A DNA stretch of 64,000 bases from NCBI GenBank assembly GCA_963849325.1, contig CAWKHF010000012.1, positions 256,001-320,000 on the forward strand. The letters run 5' to 3'. A program made the translations under genes and the position numbers. Each line of letters begins with the position of its first letter. Positions within the stretch are counted from its first letter, which is position 1. Source of the stretch: an uncultured Planctomycetota bacterium. Lineage in GTDB: Bacteria; Planctomycetota; Planctomycetia; Gemmatales; Gemmataceae. Below, piece by piece: positions 37,742 through 59,320 of the stretch. The notes below the pieces were generated by a model. That model had not been told where the DNA came from. It searched no databases and worked only from the letters and a program-made list of their open reading frames with translations.

Positions 37742-40700
37742 TCAACTGCACCCCGAAGTAGCCCCACACGTATCGCACTTGCAGCAGCGCCGCTGCGCAC
37801 CAAGGTCAGTTGGCCGCACTCGCTGCACGGATCGCCCTCGTAACCTTTCAGCCGTGCTTGTCGGATCTTCTGCTCCATGCTCTGCTCGCGCAGGTCGGCG
37901 ACGTGCCGTTCTTGTGTCCGTTGCCGTTGCTCTGTTCGCGCAGCGGCGTCAGGTGGCCGCTGCGCGGCGTGGCGAACGCCTTGGATACCGGCTGCGGCTC
38001 GACGATGCGCTCCTCGACCACCTCCTCCGCCTCGAAGGCCGGCTCGTCGCGCTCGCGGTGCAGGGCGTCGCCGCGCAGATCCTCCGCCTCGACCTGGGCC
38101 AGGTCGTGCCGGCCCAGGTAGGTGATGGCCAGCTCGCGGAAGATGTAGTCGATGATCGACGTCGTCATCTTGATGTGCGGGTTGCCCTGGACCACGCCGT
38201 TCGGCTCGAAGCGCGTGAACACAAAGGCGTCCACGTACTCCTCCAGCGGTACGCCATGTTGCAGGCCGAGCGAAATGGCGATGGCGAAACAGTTGGTCAT
38301 GCTGCGGAAGGCGGCACCTTCCTTGTGCATGTCGAGGAAGATCTCGCCGAGCGTGCCGTCCTCGTACTCGCCGGTGCGCAGATACATCTTGTGGTTGCCG
38401 ATGCGGGCCTTCTGGGTGTAGCCGGCGCGGCGATCGGGCAGGCGGCGACGGTTGGCGATATAGCGATAGACGATCTTCTCGGCAATGCGAACGGCGTCGG
38501 CCTTCGGCTCGTCGTCAGCCGATTCGGCGACCTCGGCGTCGAGGTCCGGGGCGTCGGCGACGCTGTTGAGCGGCTGGCTGAGCTTGGAGCCGTCGCGGTA
38601 CAGGGCGTTGGCCTTGAGCATGAGCTGCCAACTCAGCTGGTAGGCGCTCTTAACGTCGTCGAGGGTGGCGTTGTGCGGCATATTGATCGTCTTGCTAGAT
38701 CGCACCACTGACGAACGGCTGGGCCGCCGCCATCATGCGGATGTGCGATTCCGCCGACAGGAAACGCTGGCCGAGCTTGCCGCACTTGTTGGCGCAGTCG
38801 AAGATGGGCAGGTGTTCCGGCCTGCAGGTGCGGCGCCCCCTCGACGGTCATCGTGCCGCACACGTGGTTGTTGGCCTCGGCAATCTGCTCCCGGCTGAAA
38901 CCCAGTGCCGTCAGCAGATCGAAACCGGGACGGTCGATCTGTTCGAGCGTGAAGCCGAGCCGGCCGGTCAACACATCGTCGCCGACGGTCCAGCGGTTGA
39001 AGGCGAAGGGCAACTCGAAGACGGCCGGCAGCATCGCCTCGATGCGCTGAAGCACGTCATCGGGGAAGCCCTTGGCCCGCAGCGTGGCGGCGTTGATGTG
39101 CGGACAGCCGTGCAGCGTGCCGGCCCCACGGCAGTAACGCACGATGTCCTCGATCTGCCGCGGCGTGTAGCCCAGCCGCGCCAGCGCCGGCGGGATCGAG
39201 GCGTTGATGATCTTGAAGTAGCCGCCGCCGGCCAGCTTCTTGAACTTGACCAGGGCGAAGTCCGGCTCGATGCCCGTCGTGTCGCAATCCATTACCAGAG
39301 CTATAGTCCCGGTCGGAGCAATACATGTGGATTGCGCGTTGCGATAGCCGTGCTTCTCGCCCAGTTCGACCATGCGATCCGACTCGCGCGCGAGCGGCGT
39401 CGAGCAGATAATCCGGACAGAAGCGCGGGTCGATGCCGACGGGCGTGATGGTCAGCCCCTCGTAGTCATCCTTGGGAGCGTCGTAGGCCGCCAGCCGGTG
39501 ATTGCGGACGACGCGCAGCATGGCCTCGCGGTTGGCCTCGTAGCGCGAGAACGGCCCGACCTCGGCGGCCATCTCCGCCGAGGTGGCGTAGGAGACGGCG
39601 TGCATGAGAGCGGTGACGGCGGCGCACCAGGCCCGGCCCTCATGCGAATCGTAGGGCAGCCCCTGTACCATCAAGAGCGATCCCATGTTCGCATAGCCCA
39701 ATCCCAGCGTGCGGTAATCATAAGACTTCTGCGCCACCGCCACGCTCGGGAACTGCGCCATGTAGACGGAGATCTCCAGGATCAGCGTCCACAGCCGCGT
39801 GGCGTGGCGGAAGGAACCCACGTCGAACCGGCCGGTGGCGGCGTCGTAGAACTTGAGCAAGTTCAAGGACGCGAGATTGCATGCGGTATCATCTATGAAC
39901 ATATATTCACTACAAGGATTGGACGCATTGATGCGTCCGTCGGCTGGGCAAGTGTGCCATTCGTTGACGGTGGTGTCGAACTGCACGCCGGGGTCGGCGC
40001 AGGACCAGGCCGCAAAGGTGATCTGTTCCCACAGTTCGCGGGCGCGCAGCGTCTTGCGCGGCTTGGGCGCTCGTCCCTCGGCCCGCGCTTTCTCGCTCTC
40101 CGTCCGCCAGTACAGGTGCCAGGGTCCGTCTTTCTGCGCCGCCTCCATGAAGTCGTTGGTGATGCGCACCGAGTTGTTGCTGTTCTGGCCGGAGACGGTG
40201 AAGTACGCCTTGGAGTTCCAGTCGGTGTTGTACTCCTCGATCTTCAGCGATGTGACGCCCTGCTCGGCCAGCTGCAGGACGCGCTCGACGTAGTTGAGCG
40301 GCACCAGGGCGGCGCGGGCCTCGGCAATCGCCCGGCGCAGGTCATGGTTGCGCTGGCGGTTCAGCCGTTCGTCGGCGTTGGGCCAGTTGGCGCACGCCTT
40401 GAGGATGGCGTTGAGATGGCGGTTGAGCAGCCGCGAGCCAGCGACCAGTGCCGCCACTTTGGCCTCTTCGACCATCTTCCAGCTGATGAATTCCTCGATA
40501 TCTGGATGATCGAGATCTAAAATAACCATTTTAGCCGCTCTGCGCGTGGTCCCCCCCGATTTAATCGCTCCGGCGGCGCGATCGCCGATCTTGAGAAAAC
40601 TCATCAGGCCGCTGGATTTGCCGCCGCCGGACAGTGGTTCGCCCTCACCGCGCAAAGAAGAGAAATTCGATCCCGTACCACTTCCATATTTAAAGATACG

Positions 40701-42407
40701 TGCCTCGCGGACCCACAGGTCCATGATGCCGCCTTCGTTCACGAGATCGTCCTGGATGGACTGGATGAAGCAGTTGTGTACAAGTCGGCCGGCGCACCAG
40801 AATTCGCCGGCTGCCGTCTGGAGGTCGTAAACCAACTCGGCTCCGGCCTTGCAACGTCCGTTGACCAGTACGGTAGATGGCCTGAGATGGGCTGCGGCTC
40901 CGACCAAGCTGAGCGCCATCTCCTCCTTTTTCGCTTCATGGGTGAAGCCGATTCGTTCCGCAAATAACTCACGCGAGTGCCGATCCCAGATGTTCAGGTA
41001 ATAGCAATCCTTGCGGTTGAAATCGGTGCGATCATCACTGGATTCGGCCACACAGGCGAAGATGCCGAGCGAACAGAGAAGGGCGTGCGCCTTTTCGATG
41101 ACGTCCCAACTTGTGTTGACGAGGCAAACCTTTTCTGCACTGACGTGTCCATCACTATCGAACAATCCTTGCAAAAACGGCCGTACAAAGTTTGCTCCCG
41201 AGCGAAGAACCCACTCGGGCACCATTTTGGCTGACGTGTGATTCCAGAGGCCCAGCCGCATCCAGAAGTGCCGTCCGGCCGCTCCGTAGCCGCGAATGGA
41301 ATGTCCCCAATGAAAGTCGGTCACGGTATGAGGCACGCCGTGTTTCTCGACGATGGCCAGCACCCGACGCAGTTCCGCCCCGGTGTTCACCTTCAACTCC
41401 CAGGTATCGCTGGTAGCCGAAGCGGGACGGCCGCTGAACCCATCCCCCACCATCAGGCCACTGATCCAGGCCAACTCCGCATCGACTTGCAACAGTCCGC
41501 ACGGGACGGGGAGGCACTCCGGTAGCAGCGGAACACGGGACAGGACCAGATGGTCTTTGCCAACCTCAAGGTCTCCCGCTCGTTTCTCTTGCAACTCCCC
41601 CTGGCCGTTCTGCACAAAAACAACGTGGTCCCCTGTCAATCGAATCGAGCTGCCGTCGGCCAGGTCAAGGCGGACCACAAAGCGCTTGCCGTTACAGACG
41701 GCCGCTTGGATCGGTGTCGGACGACCAAAACGGTCGAAGGCGGACAGCTTGACGCCCGATTGGACGGCCCGTACCACTTCGCCGACGGGTATCAATCCCC
41801 GATCGGTATTCACCAATTCGTCGTAAGGCAAACACGCATGCGGAGCGGGATGTTCGTATGCGGATGTGGAGCGCACGACTTGCTTGGTCTGCGGATCGAC
41901 GCGGTAATGTCCCTGGGCGGGTCCGTCGATGCCGTAGGCCCAGAACAGGCCGGTGTTGAACCACTGCGGCGAGTTCGGCGCCGCCATCTGCGCCGCCAGC
42001 ATGTAGCAGACTTCGTCGTGGAAGGCGCGGGCGTCGGCCTCCGACGAGAAGTAGCCACCCTTCCAGCCCCAGTAGCTCCAGCAGCCGGCCAGGCGGCGGA
42101 ACACCTGACGCGCGTCGGTCTCCTGGGCGTTGCGCGGATCGCCGGAGACCGGCACGCTGCGCTGCAGCCACTCCGGCACGCCCTCCTCGGCAACGCGCTG
42201 GCCCTGCACCGGCACGCCGGCCTTGCGGAAGTATTTCTGCGCCAGCACGTCCACCGCAACCTGCGACCAGCCTTCGGGGGCCAGCAGGTCTTTCAGCTCG
42301 AAGACTACCGAGCCGTCCGGGTTGACGATGCGTGAGGTCCGCGGGACGAACGCGAAAGCGGCGAACGGATCGGCCCCGGCCGTGGTGTAATGACGTGTGA
42401 TTTCCAT
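37742..42407 (-). CDS. nrdJ: Class II (adenosylcobalamin-dependent) ribonucleotide reductase with intein, C-terminal TSCPD-like domain and zinc ribbon; several frameshifts
   Basis: [78 protein letters not shown], terminal [11 protein letters not shown]. Confidence 0.95.
40773..41834 (-). mobile_element. Intein with LAGLIDADG homing endonuclease in NrdJ (354 aa)
   Basis: Starts CLPYDELV after PHA; block [16 protein letters not shown] and [10 protein letters not shown] motifs; VYDLQT...LVHN|CFIQS; visibly lower GC than flanks. Confidence 0.95.
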
Positions 42408-42562
42408 GAGAGATTTCGCGAAGAAGGTCACTCGACCGATCGCGGCCGCCGAGGGCTGGAGTCTCGGGCCGGCCGGACGGAGGGAGCGGCTGTCGGTCTA
42501 GCGGTAAACAAGTGTACCGCAAACGGTTGACGGTTGTACACAGCAAAATTCGTGAATGGGGC

Positions 42563-44255
42563 TCACCCCGCCGGCTCGGCGCCGACGACGAACGGCAGCG
42601 TGAGTCCCTTCTGGTCTTGGTACTTGCCACGCTTGTCGCCGTAGCTGGTCTGGCACACGGCTTCGCCGCGCAGAAACAGGATCTGGGCGATGCCCTCGCC
42701 GGCATAGATCTTCGCCGGCAGGGGAGTCGTATTGGAGATCTCGATGGTCACTTTTCCGCGCCACTCGGGCTCCAGGGGCGTTACATTCACGATAATGCCG
42801 CAATTGTGCGTGAAGACCCCGGCTTCGAGCGCGAAGTTAGCGGCCTCGGGGACGGTGAGGCAGTAAACGTCGTGGATGCCGGGAACCGAGCGAATGGCAG
42901 CAACCTTGTGGTTGCGTTGGGGGCGATGGCCGCGGAACGCTTCGATCAATCCAGGGAAGCGGCGAAACACGGAGCGATCGCAGTTCAACAAACGCGCGGC
43001 GGCGCGGACGGAGCCTGTCTCGTGGAGTGCGGCTCGCACGATTTCCTCGGTAATCTCCTGTCGCGTTCGGATGGCGCGGGCCACCTCCGCTTGCTTGCGT
43101 CGGCGGCTGCCGTCATCCTTGGCCCAAGCGGAGCGCGTCAGGCCTGCGATTGCCGTTCGCGCTCGGCGGGATCGAGGTAACGGCGGAGCATGGCTTGCCG
43201 GTGCGCTTCGCGGGTGGCATCCGAGATGTCCTGACGCTGAGCCAGCAGACGGTCACGAGCGATGGCGTACTCTTCGTCGTGCCAAAAACGCATCGCACGT
43301 TCTCGTTGCGACAACGAATACCGGGCCCGCCATTCCGGATCTTCCCGCAGGGCCGCCAGCGCCGCCCGAATGGCCGCGCTGTGCTCGTCGGGGTCGAAGT
43401 CTTCTCCATAACTCTCCGCGTTATGATGGCGGATGTGCTCGTTGACGCCCATCCGCACGATGTTCCACGGACGGTTGTTGCGCCGGTCGTGATCGACGTG
43501 GTGCCGATGCGTGTCGGGAAGATTGGGATACACCTGATGGCGGAGGTTCCAATCGTCGGCCAGCCGGTGCGTCGGGTAGAGGTAGCCGTTCAATGGCTGG
43601 TAGACAATCTCATACCCGCGCGACAAGTGGCGGTACAGCGGCATGAGCGAATCGCCGGGCGCAGTTGATTCGCCTCGGTCATGCGGCCATCGCGCCGCAG
43701 GAAGAGATGGTCCGGGGTGCAAAAGATCGATTCGCCGTTGTCGAGGACGATTTCTTGTAAGGCGTCGCGGCCGATGTAGCGGGGCTGTTCGAGCAGCGTC
43801 ACCATGATCCGGCCGTGCGGGCCGATGCTATAGCCCCAGAACATCTCTCCCGCCTCAGCCCGCCGGGCCATCTCCTCCAGCGTCGGGGCGCTACCGTCCA
43901 CCAGGGCGACGCGGGTGTCGCCGCGGAAACAACGCGCATACGTCGATTTCCCGACGCAGACGCAGAGAATATCGCGTGGGATCTCCAGATACTCCACGGT
44001 TTCGGCGAGTGCGAAGCTGTTCGGGGGAATGAGACAATAATCCCCTTCAATGTCCACGAATGACGCCGGATCGAAGTTCTTGGGATCGACGACGGCGCAG
44101 CGGGCGTTGGTAAACACTTTGAAGTGCCGGCCGACGCGGACATCGTAGCCGTAGCTGGAGACGCCGTAGGAGATCACGCCCGGACGCAGGGCGCTTTCGG
44201 CGAACGGCTCAATCTTGATCTCGCGCAGGATCTGCCAGTCGGCGAGCACGCCCAT
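42563..44255 (-). CDS. dcd: dCTP deaminase interrupted by an intein
   Basis: [71 protein letters not shown]. Confidence 0.95.
42803..43931 (-). mobile_element. Intein with HNH endonuclease in Dcd (internal frameshifts near 43655 and 43120)
   Basis: [13 protein letters not shown] start, CTPDH block [16 protein letters not shown]...EHIRHH HNH motif, DVYCLTV...[13 protein letters not shown] end. Confidence 0.92.
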
Positions 44256-44574
44256 GGGTGTCCTCCCTTGTCGCAAGGCGCTCGTTGGTCCCCAGCACCT
44301 TACTTTGCCCTGTCCTCGCCCCCCTTGCAAGTCGAGAGCGGAGGGAGGCAACGGCGCGGCCAACGCCGCAGGCGCAGCTGTGCCGGGATTGCCCCGATTG
44401 CCTCACGGGGGGAGACGACGCCTTTTGCCAGATTCGCCAACTGTAGCGAAAACAGCGACCCTCGGCGGAGGAACGAAAGGAGATCACCCGATTGAACTTG
44501 ACTCGACGTGGAGGAAGTGCGCTACAGTTTCGGCGAGCGTCGCCGCGGCGTTAGCTCGTGAAGAGGAGGTTGTC

Positions 44575-54903: not shown

Positions 54904-55101
54904 GGGCAAAAGAGCGAAGATGAACACACTTTGGGGTTTGCGAGACCTCCAAGGGAGGAAAAAATCGGCACGAATCCGCTACCGTGCTTGCACATGCCTA
55001 CCAAACGGATGTATAGTACCCGTTGGTGATCGGAGTGAGGGAGTGGGGTGATTCGACCCGGCGAACGGGCCTCTCCCCTCCCCGTGCAGGAGATGCCCCC
55101 A

Positions 55102-55621
55102 ATGGCGAACCTCAACAAAGTGATGCTCATCGGCCGTCTGACGCGCGACCCGGAAGTGCGGACCTTCGGCAACGGCGGCAAGGTGGCCAAGTTTGGCTTC
55201 GCGGTGAACAACAAGAAGAAGAACCCCCAGACGGGGCAGTGGGAAGATGAGCCGGTCTTTCTGGATATTGAAGCGTTCAACCGGCAGACAGGACGGCAAG
55301 CTGGCCGACCTGGTGGAACAATACTTCAAAAAGGGGGCGCAGGTCTACCTCGAAGGCCACCTCCGGTTAGACCAGTGGAAGGACAAGAACGATGGCGCGA
55401 AGCGCTCCAGGTTGAAGATTGTCCTTGATGACTTCCAGTTTTTCGAGCCGCGCACCGACGGTGGCGGCGATGGGGGGATGAGGTCGCAGCGCTCAACCGC
55501 GGCGCCGGCCGCTCCGCGCAAAGCGGAACCCAACTACTCCAACGGCGGCGGTCACGGCGGTTTCGACGAACCGGAGCCGGGGCCGTCGGAAGGCAACCGA
55601 GAGGACGACATCCCGTTCTGA
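55102..55621 (+). CDS. ssb: Single-stranded DNA-binding protein (frameshift near 55290)
   Basis: NLNKVMLIGRLTRDPE, KG.QVYLEG.L, C-terminal DDIPF. Confidence 0.96.
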
Positions 55622-55655
55622 GTCGGACGGGAGCAGCTAGACAGGCAGGTATCTC

Positions 55656-56153
55656 ATGGCCAAGCAGCGGAATCAGATGCTCCGGGGAACGCACGGCGGC
55701 ATGCAGCTGGTGCTGACCGAGGACGTGGCCCACCTGGGCAAGCAGGGCGACGTGGTCGAGGTCAAGCCAGGCTACGGGCGCAACTACCTGCTGCCGCGCG
55801 GCCTGGCCACCGTGCCGACCGAGCACAACCTCCGCCTGCTGGAGCGCTACAAGATCCGCGTCAGGCAGGCCCGCGAGGCGCGCATCGCCGACCTCAAGGG
55901 GCTGGCCGAGCAGATCGCCAAGATGGCCGGCATCACCATCGAGGCCAACGCCAACGACGAAGGCCACCTGTACGGCTCCGTCGCCGCCCCCGAAATCTCG
56001 CAGCGGTCTCAAGGCCAAGGGCATGCTCATCGAGCCGGACATGGTCGCCTGGAAGGGCCGATCAAGGAGACCGGCCTGTACGCCATCAAGCTGAACCTCG
56101 GCTACGACATCGAGACCGAGGTCAAGGTCGCCGTCATCAAGACGCAGAAGTGA
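55656..56153 (+). CDS. rplI: 50S ribosomal protein L9
   Basis: LGKQGDVVEVKPGYGRNYLLPRGLA, HLYGSV. Confidence 0.96.
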   Translation: MAKQRNQMLRGTHGGMQLVLTEDVAHLGKQGDVVEVKPGYGRNYLLPRGLATVPTEHNLRLLERYKIRVRQAREARIADLKGLAEQIAKMAGITIEANANDEGHLYGSVAAPEISQRSQGQGHAHRAGHGRLEGPIKETGLYAIKLNLGYDIETEVKVAVIKTQK

Positions 56154-56212: not shown

Positions 56213-57567
56213 ATGTCGCCGGAAGCCATCGGGCCGGAACGTCTGCCGCCGCAGAACCTCGACGCCGAGCGTTCCGTCCTCGGCAGCATGTTGCGCGACA
56301 ACGACGCCATCAGCGTCGTCGTGCAGATCATCACCGCCGAGAGCTTCTACGCCGACGCCCATCGCAAAATCTTCCAGGCCATCTCCGATATCAACGACAA
56401 GGGCGGCCAACCCGTCGATCTGGTCATCCTCGCCGAAGAGCTAAGCAAGCGCGGCCAGCTGGAGGACGTCGGCCGCGCCGCCTACCTGGCGGAGCTGTGG
56501 GACGCGGCCCCGACGGCGGCCAACGCCGAGTATTACGCCCAGATCGTCCGCGACAAGGCCATCGTCCGCAGCCTCATCCACGCCAGCACCGAGATCCTCC
56601 GCGACGCCTACGAGCAGGGCCAGCCCGCCGAGGAACTGCTGGAGGGGGCCGAGCGCAAGATCCTCGACGTGGCCCAGATGGGCGTCACCGGCCAGACGAT
56701 CACGCTGGAGCAGGCGATCACCGAGACGTATCGCCGCATCGACGATCGCGCCAGCGGCAAGCAGAAGGCGGGCGGCCTCTCGACCGGCTTCGCCGACCTC
56801 AACGAGATCACGGCCGGCCTGCACGACGGCGAACTGGTCATCATCGCGGCGCGGCCGAGCGTCGGAAAAACGGCCTTTGCGCTCGGCTATTGTCCGTAAT
56901 ATCATCGTCGAGGAAAAGGAGCCGGTCTTCTTCGTCAGTCTGGAGCAGTCGCGCATCGAGTTGGCCGAGCGCCTGCTGTGTTCGCAGGCCCGCGTGGACA
57001 GCCATCGCCTGCGCAAGGGCACGCTCGGCTCGCGACGACATGGATCGTCTCATCGACGCCGGCGGCGTGCTGCGCAACGGCAAGCTGTTCATCGACGACT
57101 CGCCGGTGCAGAGCATGTTGCGCATCGCGGCCAACGCCCGGCGTCTGAAACTGCGGCACGGCATCAAGCTCATCGTGATCGATTACTTGCAGCTGATCGA
57201 GCCGGACAACCGCCGCGATCCGCGTCAGGAGCAGGTGGCGCAGATCAGCCGCCGTCTCAAGGCGCTGGCCAAGGAATTGCAGATCCCGCTGGTCGCTCTG
57301 GCCCAGGTCAACCGCTCCTCGGAGGATCGTCAGGACCATCGGCCGCGATTGGCGGACTTAAGGGAGTCGGGAAGTATTGAGCAGGATGCGGACACCGTCA
57401 TGCTGCTGCACCGGCCCGATCGCTACGAACCGGGCCAGCACGAGGGCATCATCGAGGTGATTATCGGCAAGCAGCGCAACGGCCCGACCGGCGAGATCAC
57501 CCTCGCCTACCTCAAGCAGTTCATGCGTTACGAGGACTACGCCGCCGGCACGCCCTTCGACAGCTGA
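56213..57567 (+). CDS. dnaB: Replicative DNA helicase (frameshifts near 56885 and 57030)
   Basis: PPQNLDAERSVLG, AARPSVGKT, IDYLQL, ADLRESGSIEQDAD, KQRNGPTG. Confidence 0.97.
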
Positions 57568-57578
57568 CAGCAACGCTC

Positions 57579-57844
57579 AGAGTCTGTCCCAAAAGCCCCT
57601 CTCCCCCGCTTCGGGGGAGAGGGGTTGGGGTGAGGGGGCGAGAAACTCGCGGAAAGCGCACCCCCCTCACCCCAACCCCTCTCCCCCGCTTCGGGGGAGA
57701 GGGGTTGGGGTGAGGGGTTGGGGGTGAGGGGTTGGGGGTGAGGGGTTGGGGGTGAGGGGGCGAGAAACCCGCGGAAAGCGCACCCCCTCACCCCAACCCC
57801 TCTCCCCCGGAGTACCGGGGAGAGGGGCTTACCGGACAGACTCT
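57579..57844. mobile_element. MITE-like element with 11-bp terminal inverted repeats AGAGTCTGTCC/GGACAGACTCT and internal G-rich tandem repeats
   Basis: Perfect TIRs; duplicated internal cassette and ggggtgaggggttg tandem; homologous to 10109-10254. Confidence 0.75.
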
Positions 57845-59320
57845 CGGCGCATCGTGGCAAACAGCAGCAGCGTGGCCAGGGCGTTGTTGACGCCGTGGGC
57901 AATCATCGGGGGCAACAGCGTGCCGCGCCACTCGCGCATCAGCGCGAAGGCCAGGGCAAGACGCCATCAGCACCGGCACTCCCAGGAACCCTTGCGGGTG
58001 GATGACCGCGAACACAAAGCTCACCACGAGCGCACTGAAGACCACACTCAACGCCGGCCGCAGTCGGGAGCTGGCCTCGCGCAGATGGCGATACAGCACG
58101 CCGCGGAACATCGTCTCTTCCACCACCGGCGCGACCACGCTGGCCACGAACACCACTTCCAGCCACACCCACCAGCCGGCCCGCGCCGCCCAGAAGACGA
58201 TCGGATGCCCCGGCGCGTCGCTCGGCCCGAACTCGTCGGGACCGAGACCGAGTTGATCGCGCAGTTTCGTCAGGCCGAGCATGAGGAGCAGGCCGACGAG
58301 CAGGAGAGGCAGGGCCATGGCATAGCAGCCGAAGCCGAGCAGCGTATCCACGGCCGGCCGTCGGCCGAAGTGCCAGCCGATGTCCTGGCGCACCTGTCGC
58401 CAGGGGATGCCGCGCAGCACCGGCCAGCCCAGTGCGGCCAAACTGCCCAGCGCGGCCAGACCGCTCAGGGCCAGCGACCCCTGGCGGAGCGAAAACCAGT
58501 CCACGACATAGTGAGCGCCATGACTGAAGCCCAGAAAGAGCAGCATGTACAGGGCGAACGTCTCGGCGTAGAGACCGCCGGACGACGAACCGAGGCGCAG
58601 ACCGCCGCGCAGCAAACCCAGCATCCACAGCACCAACAGCGTGACGAGCAGGACCAGCCCCAGCCCTCCCACACCCAGCAGGACGGCCTCGGCCGCCAGC
58701 ACCGACCACGCGGCCCGATACGCCGGCGCCAGCACCGCCGCTCGATCCGCGTCATCGCCCGCGCCGGCCGGCGCCAGGGCCAGTTCGCCGAACCAACCGA
58801 GCCGCTGACGCAACTCCTGTCGATCATCCTCCGGCAGCGAAGCCGCCGCGTCCGGCTCCTTCTCGCGCACGGCGTAGAGGCGATCCAGAACCTCCGCAGT
58901 CCGGGCGTCCTCGGCGGGCGGATCGCAGGACTGAGACTCATGCCAGCGTTCGTTGATCTGGCGCAACTGCTCGCGGGCCTCGTCCGGTCCCTTCAACTCG
59001 CCGGCCAGCACGACAAAGCGCAGCCGCTGATCGTAAGGCCCACGGTTGAGGGTCTGCCGCGCATCGTCGTACAGGGTCGAGCCGAGGCCTTTGGCGAAAG
59101 ATAAGTCCTTGCCAATCTGGGCCAGGCCAACAAAGCAGCGGCCCTGCAAGCGCGTGACCAGTAGATCATAGCGCGGGCGGTCCAGCGGGCCTACCGTCGC
59201 ATAGCGCCACAGGATAAAGCCGATCGCGGCAAGGATGACGAGCCAGGCCAGAAGCGGCCGGCCCTTGGGCACGGCGGGGATGACCGGCGGTTCCAGCGTG
59301 ACGGCGAAGGGACCAGACAT
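57829..59320 (-). CDS. CPBP (Abi/CAAX) intramembrane glutamic endopeptidase (frameshift near 57960)
   Basis: APVVEETMFRG, FAVIH, and in the shifted frame MREWRGTLLPPMIAHGVNN. Confidence 0.88.

Follow-up and report, generated by a model that had tools for sequence, protein, structure and literature searches.

In Mycobacterium smegmatis, as described for DnaBi1 and DnaBi2, inteins interrupt the replicative helicase DnaB at the P-loop ("insertion site b") and at the H4 DNA-binding loop ("insertion site a"), and the +1 Ser/Thr residue serves the helicase and splicing alike (PMC6195587). Here we examine the same two insertion points of the same protein in an uncultured Planctomycetota bacterium of the family Gemmataceae, within a stretch of 64,000 nucleotides (the window; GenBank assembly GCA_963849325.1, contig CAWKHF010000012.1, positions 256,001 to 320,000) whose dnaB gene (window positions 56213-57567, + strand) is empty at both points, so that our focus is the DNA of empty sites. 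Both sites lie in patches of rare codons. The H4 patch belongs to a silent haplotype that is shared by empty alleles of several genera, is distant from the flanks of occupied alleles and conflicts with the gene tree; it is likely the trace of a conflict between host and selfish element. Throughout, G000 is the genome of the window, other G numbers are relatives in the same family, and G002, G006, G007, G008 and G009 are congeners.

Three further systems offer points of comparison. In haloarchaeal mcm, empty alleles resist intein invasion and a proline after the site blocks splicing; on moving, the inteins take along at least the last N-extein codon (PMC10643990). The resistance described there acts at the protein level, whereas at the dnaB site the protein is unchanged and the change is silent. 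In Torulaspora, WHO elements encode a LAGLIDADG endonuclease with a 28-bp site, and the FBA1 target has diversified to evade cleavage, with 8 of 24 silent single mutations giving resistance (bioRxiv 10.64898/2026.08.13.744650). That system, as reported, is eukaryotic, involves no intein, was assayed for cleavage and shows mostly amino acid changes, whereas the changes described here are silent and read from the sequence alone. In fungal mitochondria, exon diversity is raised at the boundaries of mobile introns, and co-conversion from outside donors or mutagenic repair has been proposed (Repar and Warnecke 2017, PMC5378118). Common to both cases is a local excess of host-gene variation beside the insertion point of a homing element; the fungal work concerns introns within populations, while ours concerns inteins, a comparison between genera and a discrete haplotype shared by empty alleles. 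In the open-access papers and preprints searched, we found no description of silently recoded empty intein sites.

Rare-codon patches and inteins in dnaB

The window gene combines an N-terminal DnaB domain (PF00772, 120.2 bits, from the gene's reading pieces) with a C-terminal RecA-like DnaB_C domain (PF03796), the latter matched in three consecutive pieces (profile positions 1-36, 39-84 and 87-255). It is the sole dnaB match in G000. Only 51 of its 451 codons end in A or T (A/T3 codons), giving a share of G/C-ending codons (GC3) of 0.887. The first-pass annotation had reported two rare-codon patches in this biased gene, and they are real: the two densest 14-codon windows are those over the P-loop (7/14 A/T3, at 56858-56864) and over the H4 motif (6/14, at 57346). 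The P-loop, or Walker A, patch spans 56861-56903 on the + strand and contains the empty site GK|T, with the junction between 56869 and 56870; the H4 patch spans 57346-57387 on the same strand and contains the empty site ESG|S, with the junction between 57372 and 57373. The quoted codons are all present (GTC GGA AAA ACG GCC TTT at 56861-56878, GCT ATT GTC CGT AAT at 56886-56900, and CGA TTG to GAT at 57346-57387). The first-pass annotation overlooked, however, that the ellipsis in its first patch conceals a +1 frame change near 56885; a second lies near 57032-57033.

According to a codon table built from 3,437 long open reading frames (ORFs) of G000 (GC3 0.83), the codons of the H4 patch are very rare: it uses TTA (0.9% of Leu codons), AGG (3.3% of Arg), AGT (7.1% of Ser), CGA (9.3% of Arg) and GGA (10.6% of Gly). 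Raw A/T3 counts across all long ORFs were swamped by wrong-frame stretches and low-complexity ORFs and were replaced by an amino-acid-conditioned z-score, calculated against 746,786 frame-filtered G000 windows. The H4 window centered on the junction scores -3.71 (0.26% of G000 windows are lower), and the window quoted in the first-pass annotation scores -4.32 (0.10% lower). The P-loop window scores -2.0 when centered (3% lower) and -2.7 when shifted. The H4 patch is a clear outlier and the P-loop patch a mild one. Since 1,248 windows of G000 have z < -4 (and 22,062, about 3%, have z < -2), the case that can be made from this genome alone is only suggestive.

When the dnaB codons of 10 genomes of the genus are aligned, SVGKTAFA.AIVRN (0.586) and RLADLRESGSIEQD (0.436) stand out as the windows richest in A/T3 codons in the whole gene, against a gene mean of 0.234, and G000 has the highest dnaB GC3 in the genus (0.889; other members, 0.70-0.84). 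Walker A windows in general are unremarkable in G000 (n=153; mean z 0.41 versus a background of 0.36; Mann-Whitney p 0.55). Of the 269 Walker A-like motifs of this genome, 7 use GGA for Gly and 74 use AAA for Lys; the 3 that use both do not resemble true P-loops. Other DnaB motifs of equal conservation in the window gene use ordinary codons.

The patches coincide with true intein insertion points. G009, of the same genus, has a dnaB frame of 1,427 residues with inteins at exactly both positions: one of 495 residues in the P-loop (GK|CLVHD...VHN|TAF) and one of 430 residues at H4 (ESG|CLAGD...SHN|SIEQ). Both contain Intein_splicing and LAGLIDADG_3 domains (PF14890, 84 and 111 bits; PF14528, 75 and 72 bits). 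At the P-loop and H4 bonds alike, then, homologues carry an intein with splicing blocks, followed by Ser, Thr or Cys. The search of related planctomycete dnaB genes that the first-pass annotation had proposed yielded H4 intein orthologues in 10 of 252 family genomes from at least nine genera (eight at 58-100% identity, two cut by contig ends) and P-loop inteins read with both flanks in six genomes (G009, G023, G022, G097, G117 and G156). LAGLIDADG_3 domains are found in the family's H4 inteins, for which endonuclease activity is putative. In G000, dnaB is empty at both sites and no intein remnant was seen. Surplus dnaB matches in G047, G258, G129 and G058 proved to be paralogues rather than further H4 inteins, and a second dnaB match in G136 is an unrelated empty allele with +1 Ala. 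In the P-loop intein of G009 (L031:5944-7428), the LAGLIDADG domain is preceded by a helix-turn-helix domain (HTH_31, 29.6 bits).

The H4 haplotype and its possible origins

At H4, the rare codons of G000 include a 24-base core, TTA AGG GAG TCG GGA | AGT ATT GAG (57358-57381, + strand), which is the core of a shared silent haplotype (hapE). Nine of the 11 genus members are empty at H4 and read GAY TTR AGR GAR TCN GGA WSN ATY; the exceptions are the occupied G009 (CTT CGC GAA AGC GGC | intein | TCA ATC) and the empty G002 (CTT CGC GAA TCC GGC TGG ATC). In all 10 H4-occupied alleles of the family, Arg is CGC and Gly is GGC (8), GGT (1) or GGG (1), with neither AGR nor GGA, and all 15 alleles that combine TTR, AGR and GGA are empty. 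A pattern with Arg fixed as AGR, run against the 252 family genomes, hit 20 of them, while its reversed control hit none. Of these 20 matches, 12 have the core TTA AGR GAG TCK GGA AGY ATH GAR (24 bases, four variable silent positions), which is carried by G000 and seven further genus members as well as by G048, G052, G022, G175 and G232, from five other genera. Carriers of different genera have the rare TCT and ATA codons in common, an agreement better explained by the transfer of a very short tract than by convergence.

The empty G002 allele (L004) is peculiar in its own right. Its product reads ESGWIEQD because TGG replaces the +1 Ser codon, and its flank codons are of the ordinary, occupied-like kind. 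This could be a sequencing error (TCG to TGG, in a long-read assembly) or the footprint of an inexact intein loss.

The H4 haplotype is distant from the occupied flanks. Over LRESG|SI, where 13 positions can change silently, the G000 allele is separated from seven occupied alleles by 13, 9, 12, 12, 9, 10 and 8 differences. The mean of 10.43 was reached in 0 of 200,000 draws from a null based on G000 codon usage (null mean 6.21), and a uniform-codon null gives P 2.3e-4. The differences fall within -15 to +6 of the junction, where their relation to an endonuclease recognition sequence is putative, and they take in nearly every base that LRESG|SI leaves free to change, among them the first position of the Leu and Arg codons and the entire +1 Ser codon. 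At H4, these results support a recoding of the empty allele relative to occupied ones. The first-pass claim of the same signature at both sites is not supported as it stands: the pattern is less marked at the P-loop, where G000 differs from six occupied alleles over VGK|TAF at 4.17 of 6 positions on average and the null mean is 3.24 (P 0.044; uniform-codon null, P 0.47). Moreover, the A/T3 codons downstream of the P-loop junction (GCT ATT GTC CGT AAT) are present in the occupied G009 allele too and are therefore not an escape feature against that intein. Five of the six P-loop-occupied alleles have a rare GGG before the junction, which suggests that the flank travels with the P-loop intein. 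The P-loop patch is more likely the legacy of repeated short-tract exchange around the site than a demonstrable escape allele.

The haplotype persists in genes with a strong G/C bias: G022 has a GC3 of 0.95 in the rest of dnaB, yet 9 of 14 codons of its H4 patch are A/T3. Among codons that are A/T3 in G007, 8 of 11 in the patches are still A/T3 in G000, versus 27 of 86 elsewhere (p 0.016), and the same retention test gives p 0.01-0.03 with four other source genomes. In the 333 amino-acid-invariant columns of the genus alignment, rare codons form the majority in 6 of 18 patch columns versus 18 of 315 elsewhere (p 7.7e-4), and columns with a TTA or AGR majority are found only in the H4 patch.

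The distribution of the haplotype conflicts with the DnaB tree, which was built from 70 alleles with the patch columns excluded. At least nine changes are required, and well-supported sisters are discordant (G022 versus G064, support 100; G232 versus G229/G233, support 98). Approximately unbiased (AU) tests reject the 15 carriers as one clade (log likelihood lower by 497, p 2.8e-9) and the genus plus the five other full carriers as one clade (lower by 289), with the reservation that both clades were chosen after inspection of the tree.

Our preferred explanation, held at slightly less than even confidence, is that two homing inteins with LAGLIDADG endonucleases have their vacant insertion sites in the two patches and that the H4 haplotype is an endonuclease-escape, that is, homing-resistant, allele. 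Both inteins would circulate in this genus and family. The haplotype would no longer match the sequence that the endonuclease of occupied alleles would meet, and this mismatch would allow it to be retained even as G/C-ending codons take over elsewhere in the gene. The haplotype may have moved between genera via very short gene-conversion tracts, possibly during the repair of endonuclease cuts. Position, haplotype, distance, distribution and disagreement with the gene tree are observed; from them we infer resistance, selection and the mode of transfer.

Several points weigh against this explanation. The association of the haplotype with emptiness (0/15 occupied among carriers versus 10/55 among other alleles) reaches only about p 0.07 by hand calculation, in a sample enriched for both classes, and the genera with AGR alleles and those with occupied alleles overlap in 2, where about 1.2 are expected (a hand count; not significant). 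Carriers lie farther from the occupied flanks (mean 9.93) than ordinary empty alleles (6.82, n=40) or intermediate ones (7.48, n=5), a comparison that is partly circular, the haplotype being defined by features that occupied alleles lack. The P-loop, as seen above, shows no clear anti-occupied pattern, and at a dnaE-like site (GYGFNK|SHS) a candidate recoding specific to the empty allele was discarded, as non-GGC Gly codons are equally mixed in 15 occupied alleles. The occupied G009 is nested in a genus whose ancestor apparently bore the haplotype, so that either the haplotype gave no protection or the intein came via another allele, such as that of G002. Finally, metagenomes were scanned for the haplotype form with a Cys codon behind it. 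Of the four matches, three are low-GC dnaB alleles (0.35-0.49), and in these TTA AGA GAG TCK GGA runs directly into a related intein (CLAGDT..., CLSYDS...). An occupied allele whose 15-base N-flank is identical to that of the haplotype thus exists outside the family and, as read from the N-flank alone, could have been the source of the entire haplotype through a single co-conversion event.

This last observation leads to the main rival, a neutral co-conversion scar: an intein from a low-GC donor would have homed into dnaB together with its A/T-rich flanks and later been lost precisely, leaving a foreign patch that has not yet decayed. It explains the origin of the patch in one step, as a single event would account for all of the multi-base codon switches together, and the three metagenome alleles could represent such a donor. 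Flanks do appear to travel with these inteins, as the GGG codons of the P-loop-occupied alleles indicate, and occupied alleles at other sites have A/T-rich flanks (A/T3 in 8/20 flank codons for gyrB, 10/20 for the dnaE-like gene and 12/20 for C4). Haloarchaeal MCM inteins are reported to co-convert the last N-extein codon (PMC10643990). Within the family, however, the haplotype is found in none of the 10 occupied alleles, and a scan of one genome per species for its AGG form followed by a Ser or Cys codon returned 15 matches, all dnaB and all empty, so that no occupied allele with an AGG-form N-flank was found among them; seven are from Planctomycetota or Gemmatales and eight from unrelated low-GC bacteria, in which such codons are ordinary. 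The scar would also require gain and exact loss in several lineages, given the at least nine changes on the tree. The patch persists, with preferential retention, in genes with a GC3 of 0.89-0.95, its AGG, GAG and TCG codons are atypical of low-GC codon choice, and G000 shows no remnant of a past intein at either site. We therefore consider a purely neutral scar unlikely, although it is the alternative to be taken most seriously. Escape and co-conversion could also be combined, with an origin by co-conversion or templated repair and maintenance by resistance.

An improbable alternative is a mutational hot spot, in which repeated cuts and error-prone, A/T-biased repair would raise the substitution rate near the junctions without any selection for resistance. 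Both sites are indeed divergence peaks between close relatives: the differences of G009 and G002 from G000 are concentrated within approximately codons 382-391, at H4, and the P-loop region is a peak in all genus pairs. Mutagenic repair after cleavage is also one of the two mechanisms proposed beside mobile introns (PMC5378118). Independent mutation, however, fails to explain identical 24-base haplotypes across genera, including the rare TCT and ATA codons, and fails to explain the near-maximal distance from the occupied flanks.

We hold still less likely that the patch is a functional rare-codon cluster unrelated to inteins, such as a folding pause, an mRNA structure or an AAGGGAG that acts as an internal Shine-Dalgarno-like element. 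It is true that the genus conserves these codons although 13-44% of synonymous codons differ between genome pairs, and that TTAAGGGAG resembles a ribosome-binding sequence. Nevertheless, 40 of the 60 empty alleles have the ordinary haplotype, and the most GC3-rich of these (G044, with 0.98, G074, G017, G070 and G028) have at most one A/T3 codon among the 14 at H4, and likewise at most one at the P-loop, so that rare codons are not conserved at this position. Because the ordinary haplotype is this common, and because Walker A windows score like the background, the rare-codon effect is not a property of the motif itself. Occupied alleles, moreover, lack the cluster, the distribution of the haplotype conflicts with the gene tree, and equally conserved motifs of the window gene use ordinary codons. 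Chance clustering or an artefact of an indel-rich assembly is very improbable: more than a thousand windows of G000 do have z < -4, and frame errors affect dnaB, ssb, rplI and nrdJ, one of them inside the P-loop patch, but the same codons recur in nine further genus genomes and in five other genera, all independently assembled, and the windows that rank first and second in the genus alignment fall on the two intein sites.

Other intein sites and the state of the assembly

The first-pass annotation had linked the dnaB patches to a similar pattern in nrdJ and supposed a genome-wide mark that could be used to predict homing sites. The genus is rich in inteins, and besides the dnaB sites we located nine at which a congener has an intein and G000 has none. 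Of their centered windows, the three lowest stand at genome percentiles 0.006 (radical SAM-like), 0.015 (dnaE-like) and 0.034 (aconitase-like); the remaining six stand at 0.15, 0.24, 0.34, 0.45, 0.73 (gyrB) and 0.995 (a paralogue). Empty intein sites are thus enriched in outliers (three of nine; Fisher combined p 0.006), but most sites are ordinary (median percentile 0.24), and the genome-wide claim is only partly supported. Three outliers are too few for prediction, and the signal by itself cannot predict homing sites, since the threshold that picks out three of the nine is passed by about 3% of windows genome-wide; in G000, rare-codon patches alone do not predict intein sites.

The nrdJ patch (window 39300-39345, - strand) is the strongest rare-codon patch that we saw in the window (z to -6.1, about 5 in 100,000 windows lower), and it is uninterrupted in 10 of 10 congeners, so that the reverse prediction fails within the genus. 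The patch is a discrete haplotype with a Val-to-Ser change, common to G000 and G006 and not found in G007, and rare ATA and GTA codons just downstream of it are kept across much of the genus. A G002 nrdJ match that starts at residue 13 was considered as an intein and turned out to be a frame error. Elsewhere in the same gene, at approximately window 40947-42000 (- strand), G000 has an intein (PHA|CLPYDE...LVHN|CFIQS) with a LAGLIDADG_3 match, which G007 is without, and a weak intein-splicing match lies upstream of it at approximately 42803-42922. Farther on, the start of an intein within dcd seems to be present in a dCTP deaminase-like ORF (window 43590-44363, - strand), which Pfam intein searches did not flag. 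Elsewhere, one gene of G000 (C8:173795-176506) has an intein at approximately 174139-175298 that G008 lacks, while G008 and G009 have an intein at approximately 175830 that G000 lacks, which amounts to complementary occupancy of two sites in one gene within the genus.

The +1 residue varies as well. The codon family of the +1 Ser differs between occupied and empty alleles at two of the other sites. At one more, C8:169640, G000 reads AFNFDGE where occupied congeners read CFNFDGE, so that Ala stands where an intein needs Ser or Cys for splicing, and empty dnaB H4 alleles of other genera read ESGA or ESGG (L013, L017, L022-L025, L030, L165 and L167). By analogy with the +1 proline described for haloarchaeal mcm (PMC10643990), to which they are a closer parallel than the silent haplotype, these Ala and Gly alleles may represent a protein-level block to invasion.

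The window dnaB does not form one uninterrupted frame. It is read in three (56213-56884, 56886-57032 and 57034-57567, + strand), separated by two +1 changes. The first, within 56882-56887 and inside the P-loop patch, is due to one surplus base, probably the G at 56885, where relatives read CTC GCT/GGA ATT; the second, within 57030-57034, is due to one surplus base at 57032-57033. A contig from one sequencing run of a related soil organism has one base fewer at 56887, and contigs from three runs of related soil organisms (X2, X3 and X4) have one base fewer at 57032/57033. These read-derived contigs are relatives at about 88-95% likeness and not the source strain, and coverage gaps in them carry no meaning; the closest public sequencing run contains just 0.14 of the sampled words. 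ssb and rplI (window 55048-56153) and nrdJ (37848-42431) are each broken by frame changes, as dnaB is. Since dnaB is present in a single copy, since these three genes are broken too, since the assembly consists of 14 contigs (84.7% completeness) and since the contigs of relatives lack the surplus bases, we take the two insertions to be probable assembly errors. The G000 assembly appears to be rich in single-base indels, and codon-level readings of this genome need frame checks. Immediately 3' of dnaB (window 57570-57850), G/C-rich inverted and tandem repeats, with CCCCTCTCCCCCGCTTCGGGGGAGAGGGG hairpins and GGGGTTGGGGGTGAG runs, form a block that is repeated twice; the block may be terminator-like or like a repetitive extragenic palindrome (REP).

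Codon-family switches as a possible route of escape

A silent escape from an endonuclease depends on which silent changes the enzyme tolerates. According to Barzel et al. (2011, PMC3159444), PI-SceI and PI-PspI cut a target in which every wobble position has been altered (10-11 silent transitions) no less well than they cut the native site, while a single amino-acid-changing base can abolish cutting (PMC3159444). That work, as reported, demonstrates wobble tolerance; our subject is naturally recoded empty sites. If such tolerance is valid here, silent escape must use moves other than wobble, namely, family switches of Leu, Arg and Ser, and the tolerance seen with PI-SceI and PI-PspI would account for the non-wobble switches observed at H4 (PMC3159444). 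LRESG|S has four family-switchable residues, and the haplotype uses them. Across the genus, Ser or Arg columns with both codon families make up two of three columns within six codons of a junction versus 1 of 44 elsewhere (p 0.008), a count from which two more junction-near Ser columns were excluded only because G002 has Thr and Trp there. Leu family mixing is widespread (30 of 39 columns away from the junctions).

A bolder form of the escape explanation is that the 24-base H4 haplotype is a selected immunity cassette against homing, which acts via Leu, Arg and Ser switches, the sole silent moves open to a host if wobble changes are tolerated, and spreads horizontally from genus to genus as endonuclease cuts are mended by short-tract repair. 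We put this forward tentatively, as less likely than not. If it were true, Ser and Arg switches confined to a few codons would be a mark, recognizable from sequence alone, of present or past homing sites and of endonuclease footprints.

Inteins are usually regarded as nearly cost-free passengers that meet with no host response. Silent, near-maximal recoding of a landing site would be direct sequence evidence that hosts escape homing endonucleases, and would be especially telling where very GC-rich genes retain the recoded site and different genera exchange it. One could, moreover, predict the route of escape: codon-family switches where wobble changes are tolerated, within a footprint of approximately -15 to +9 around the junction.

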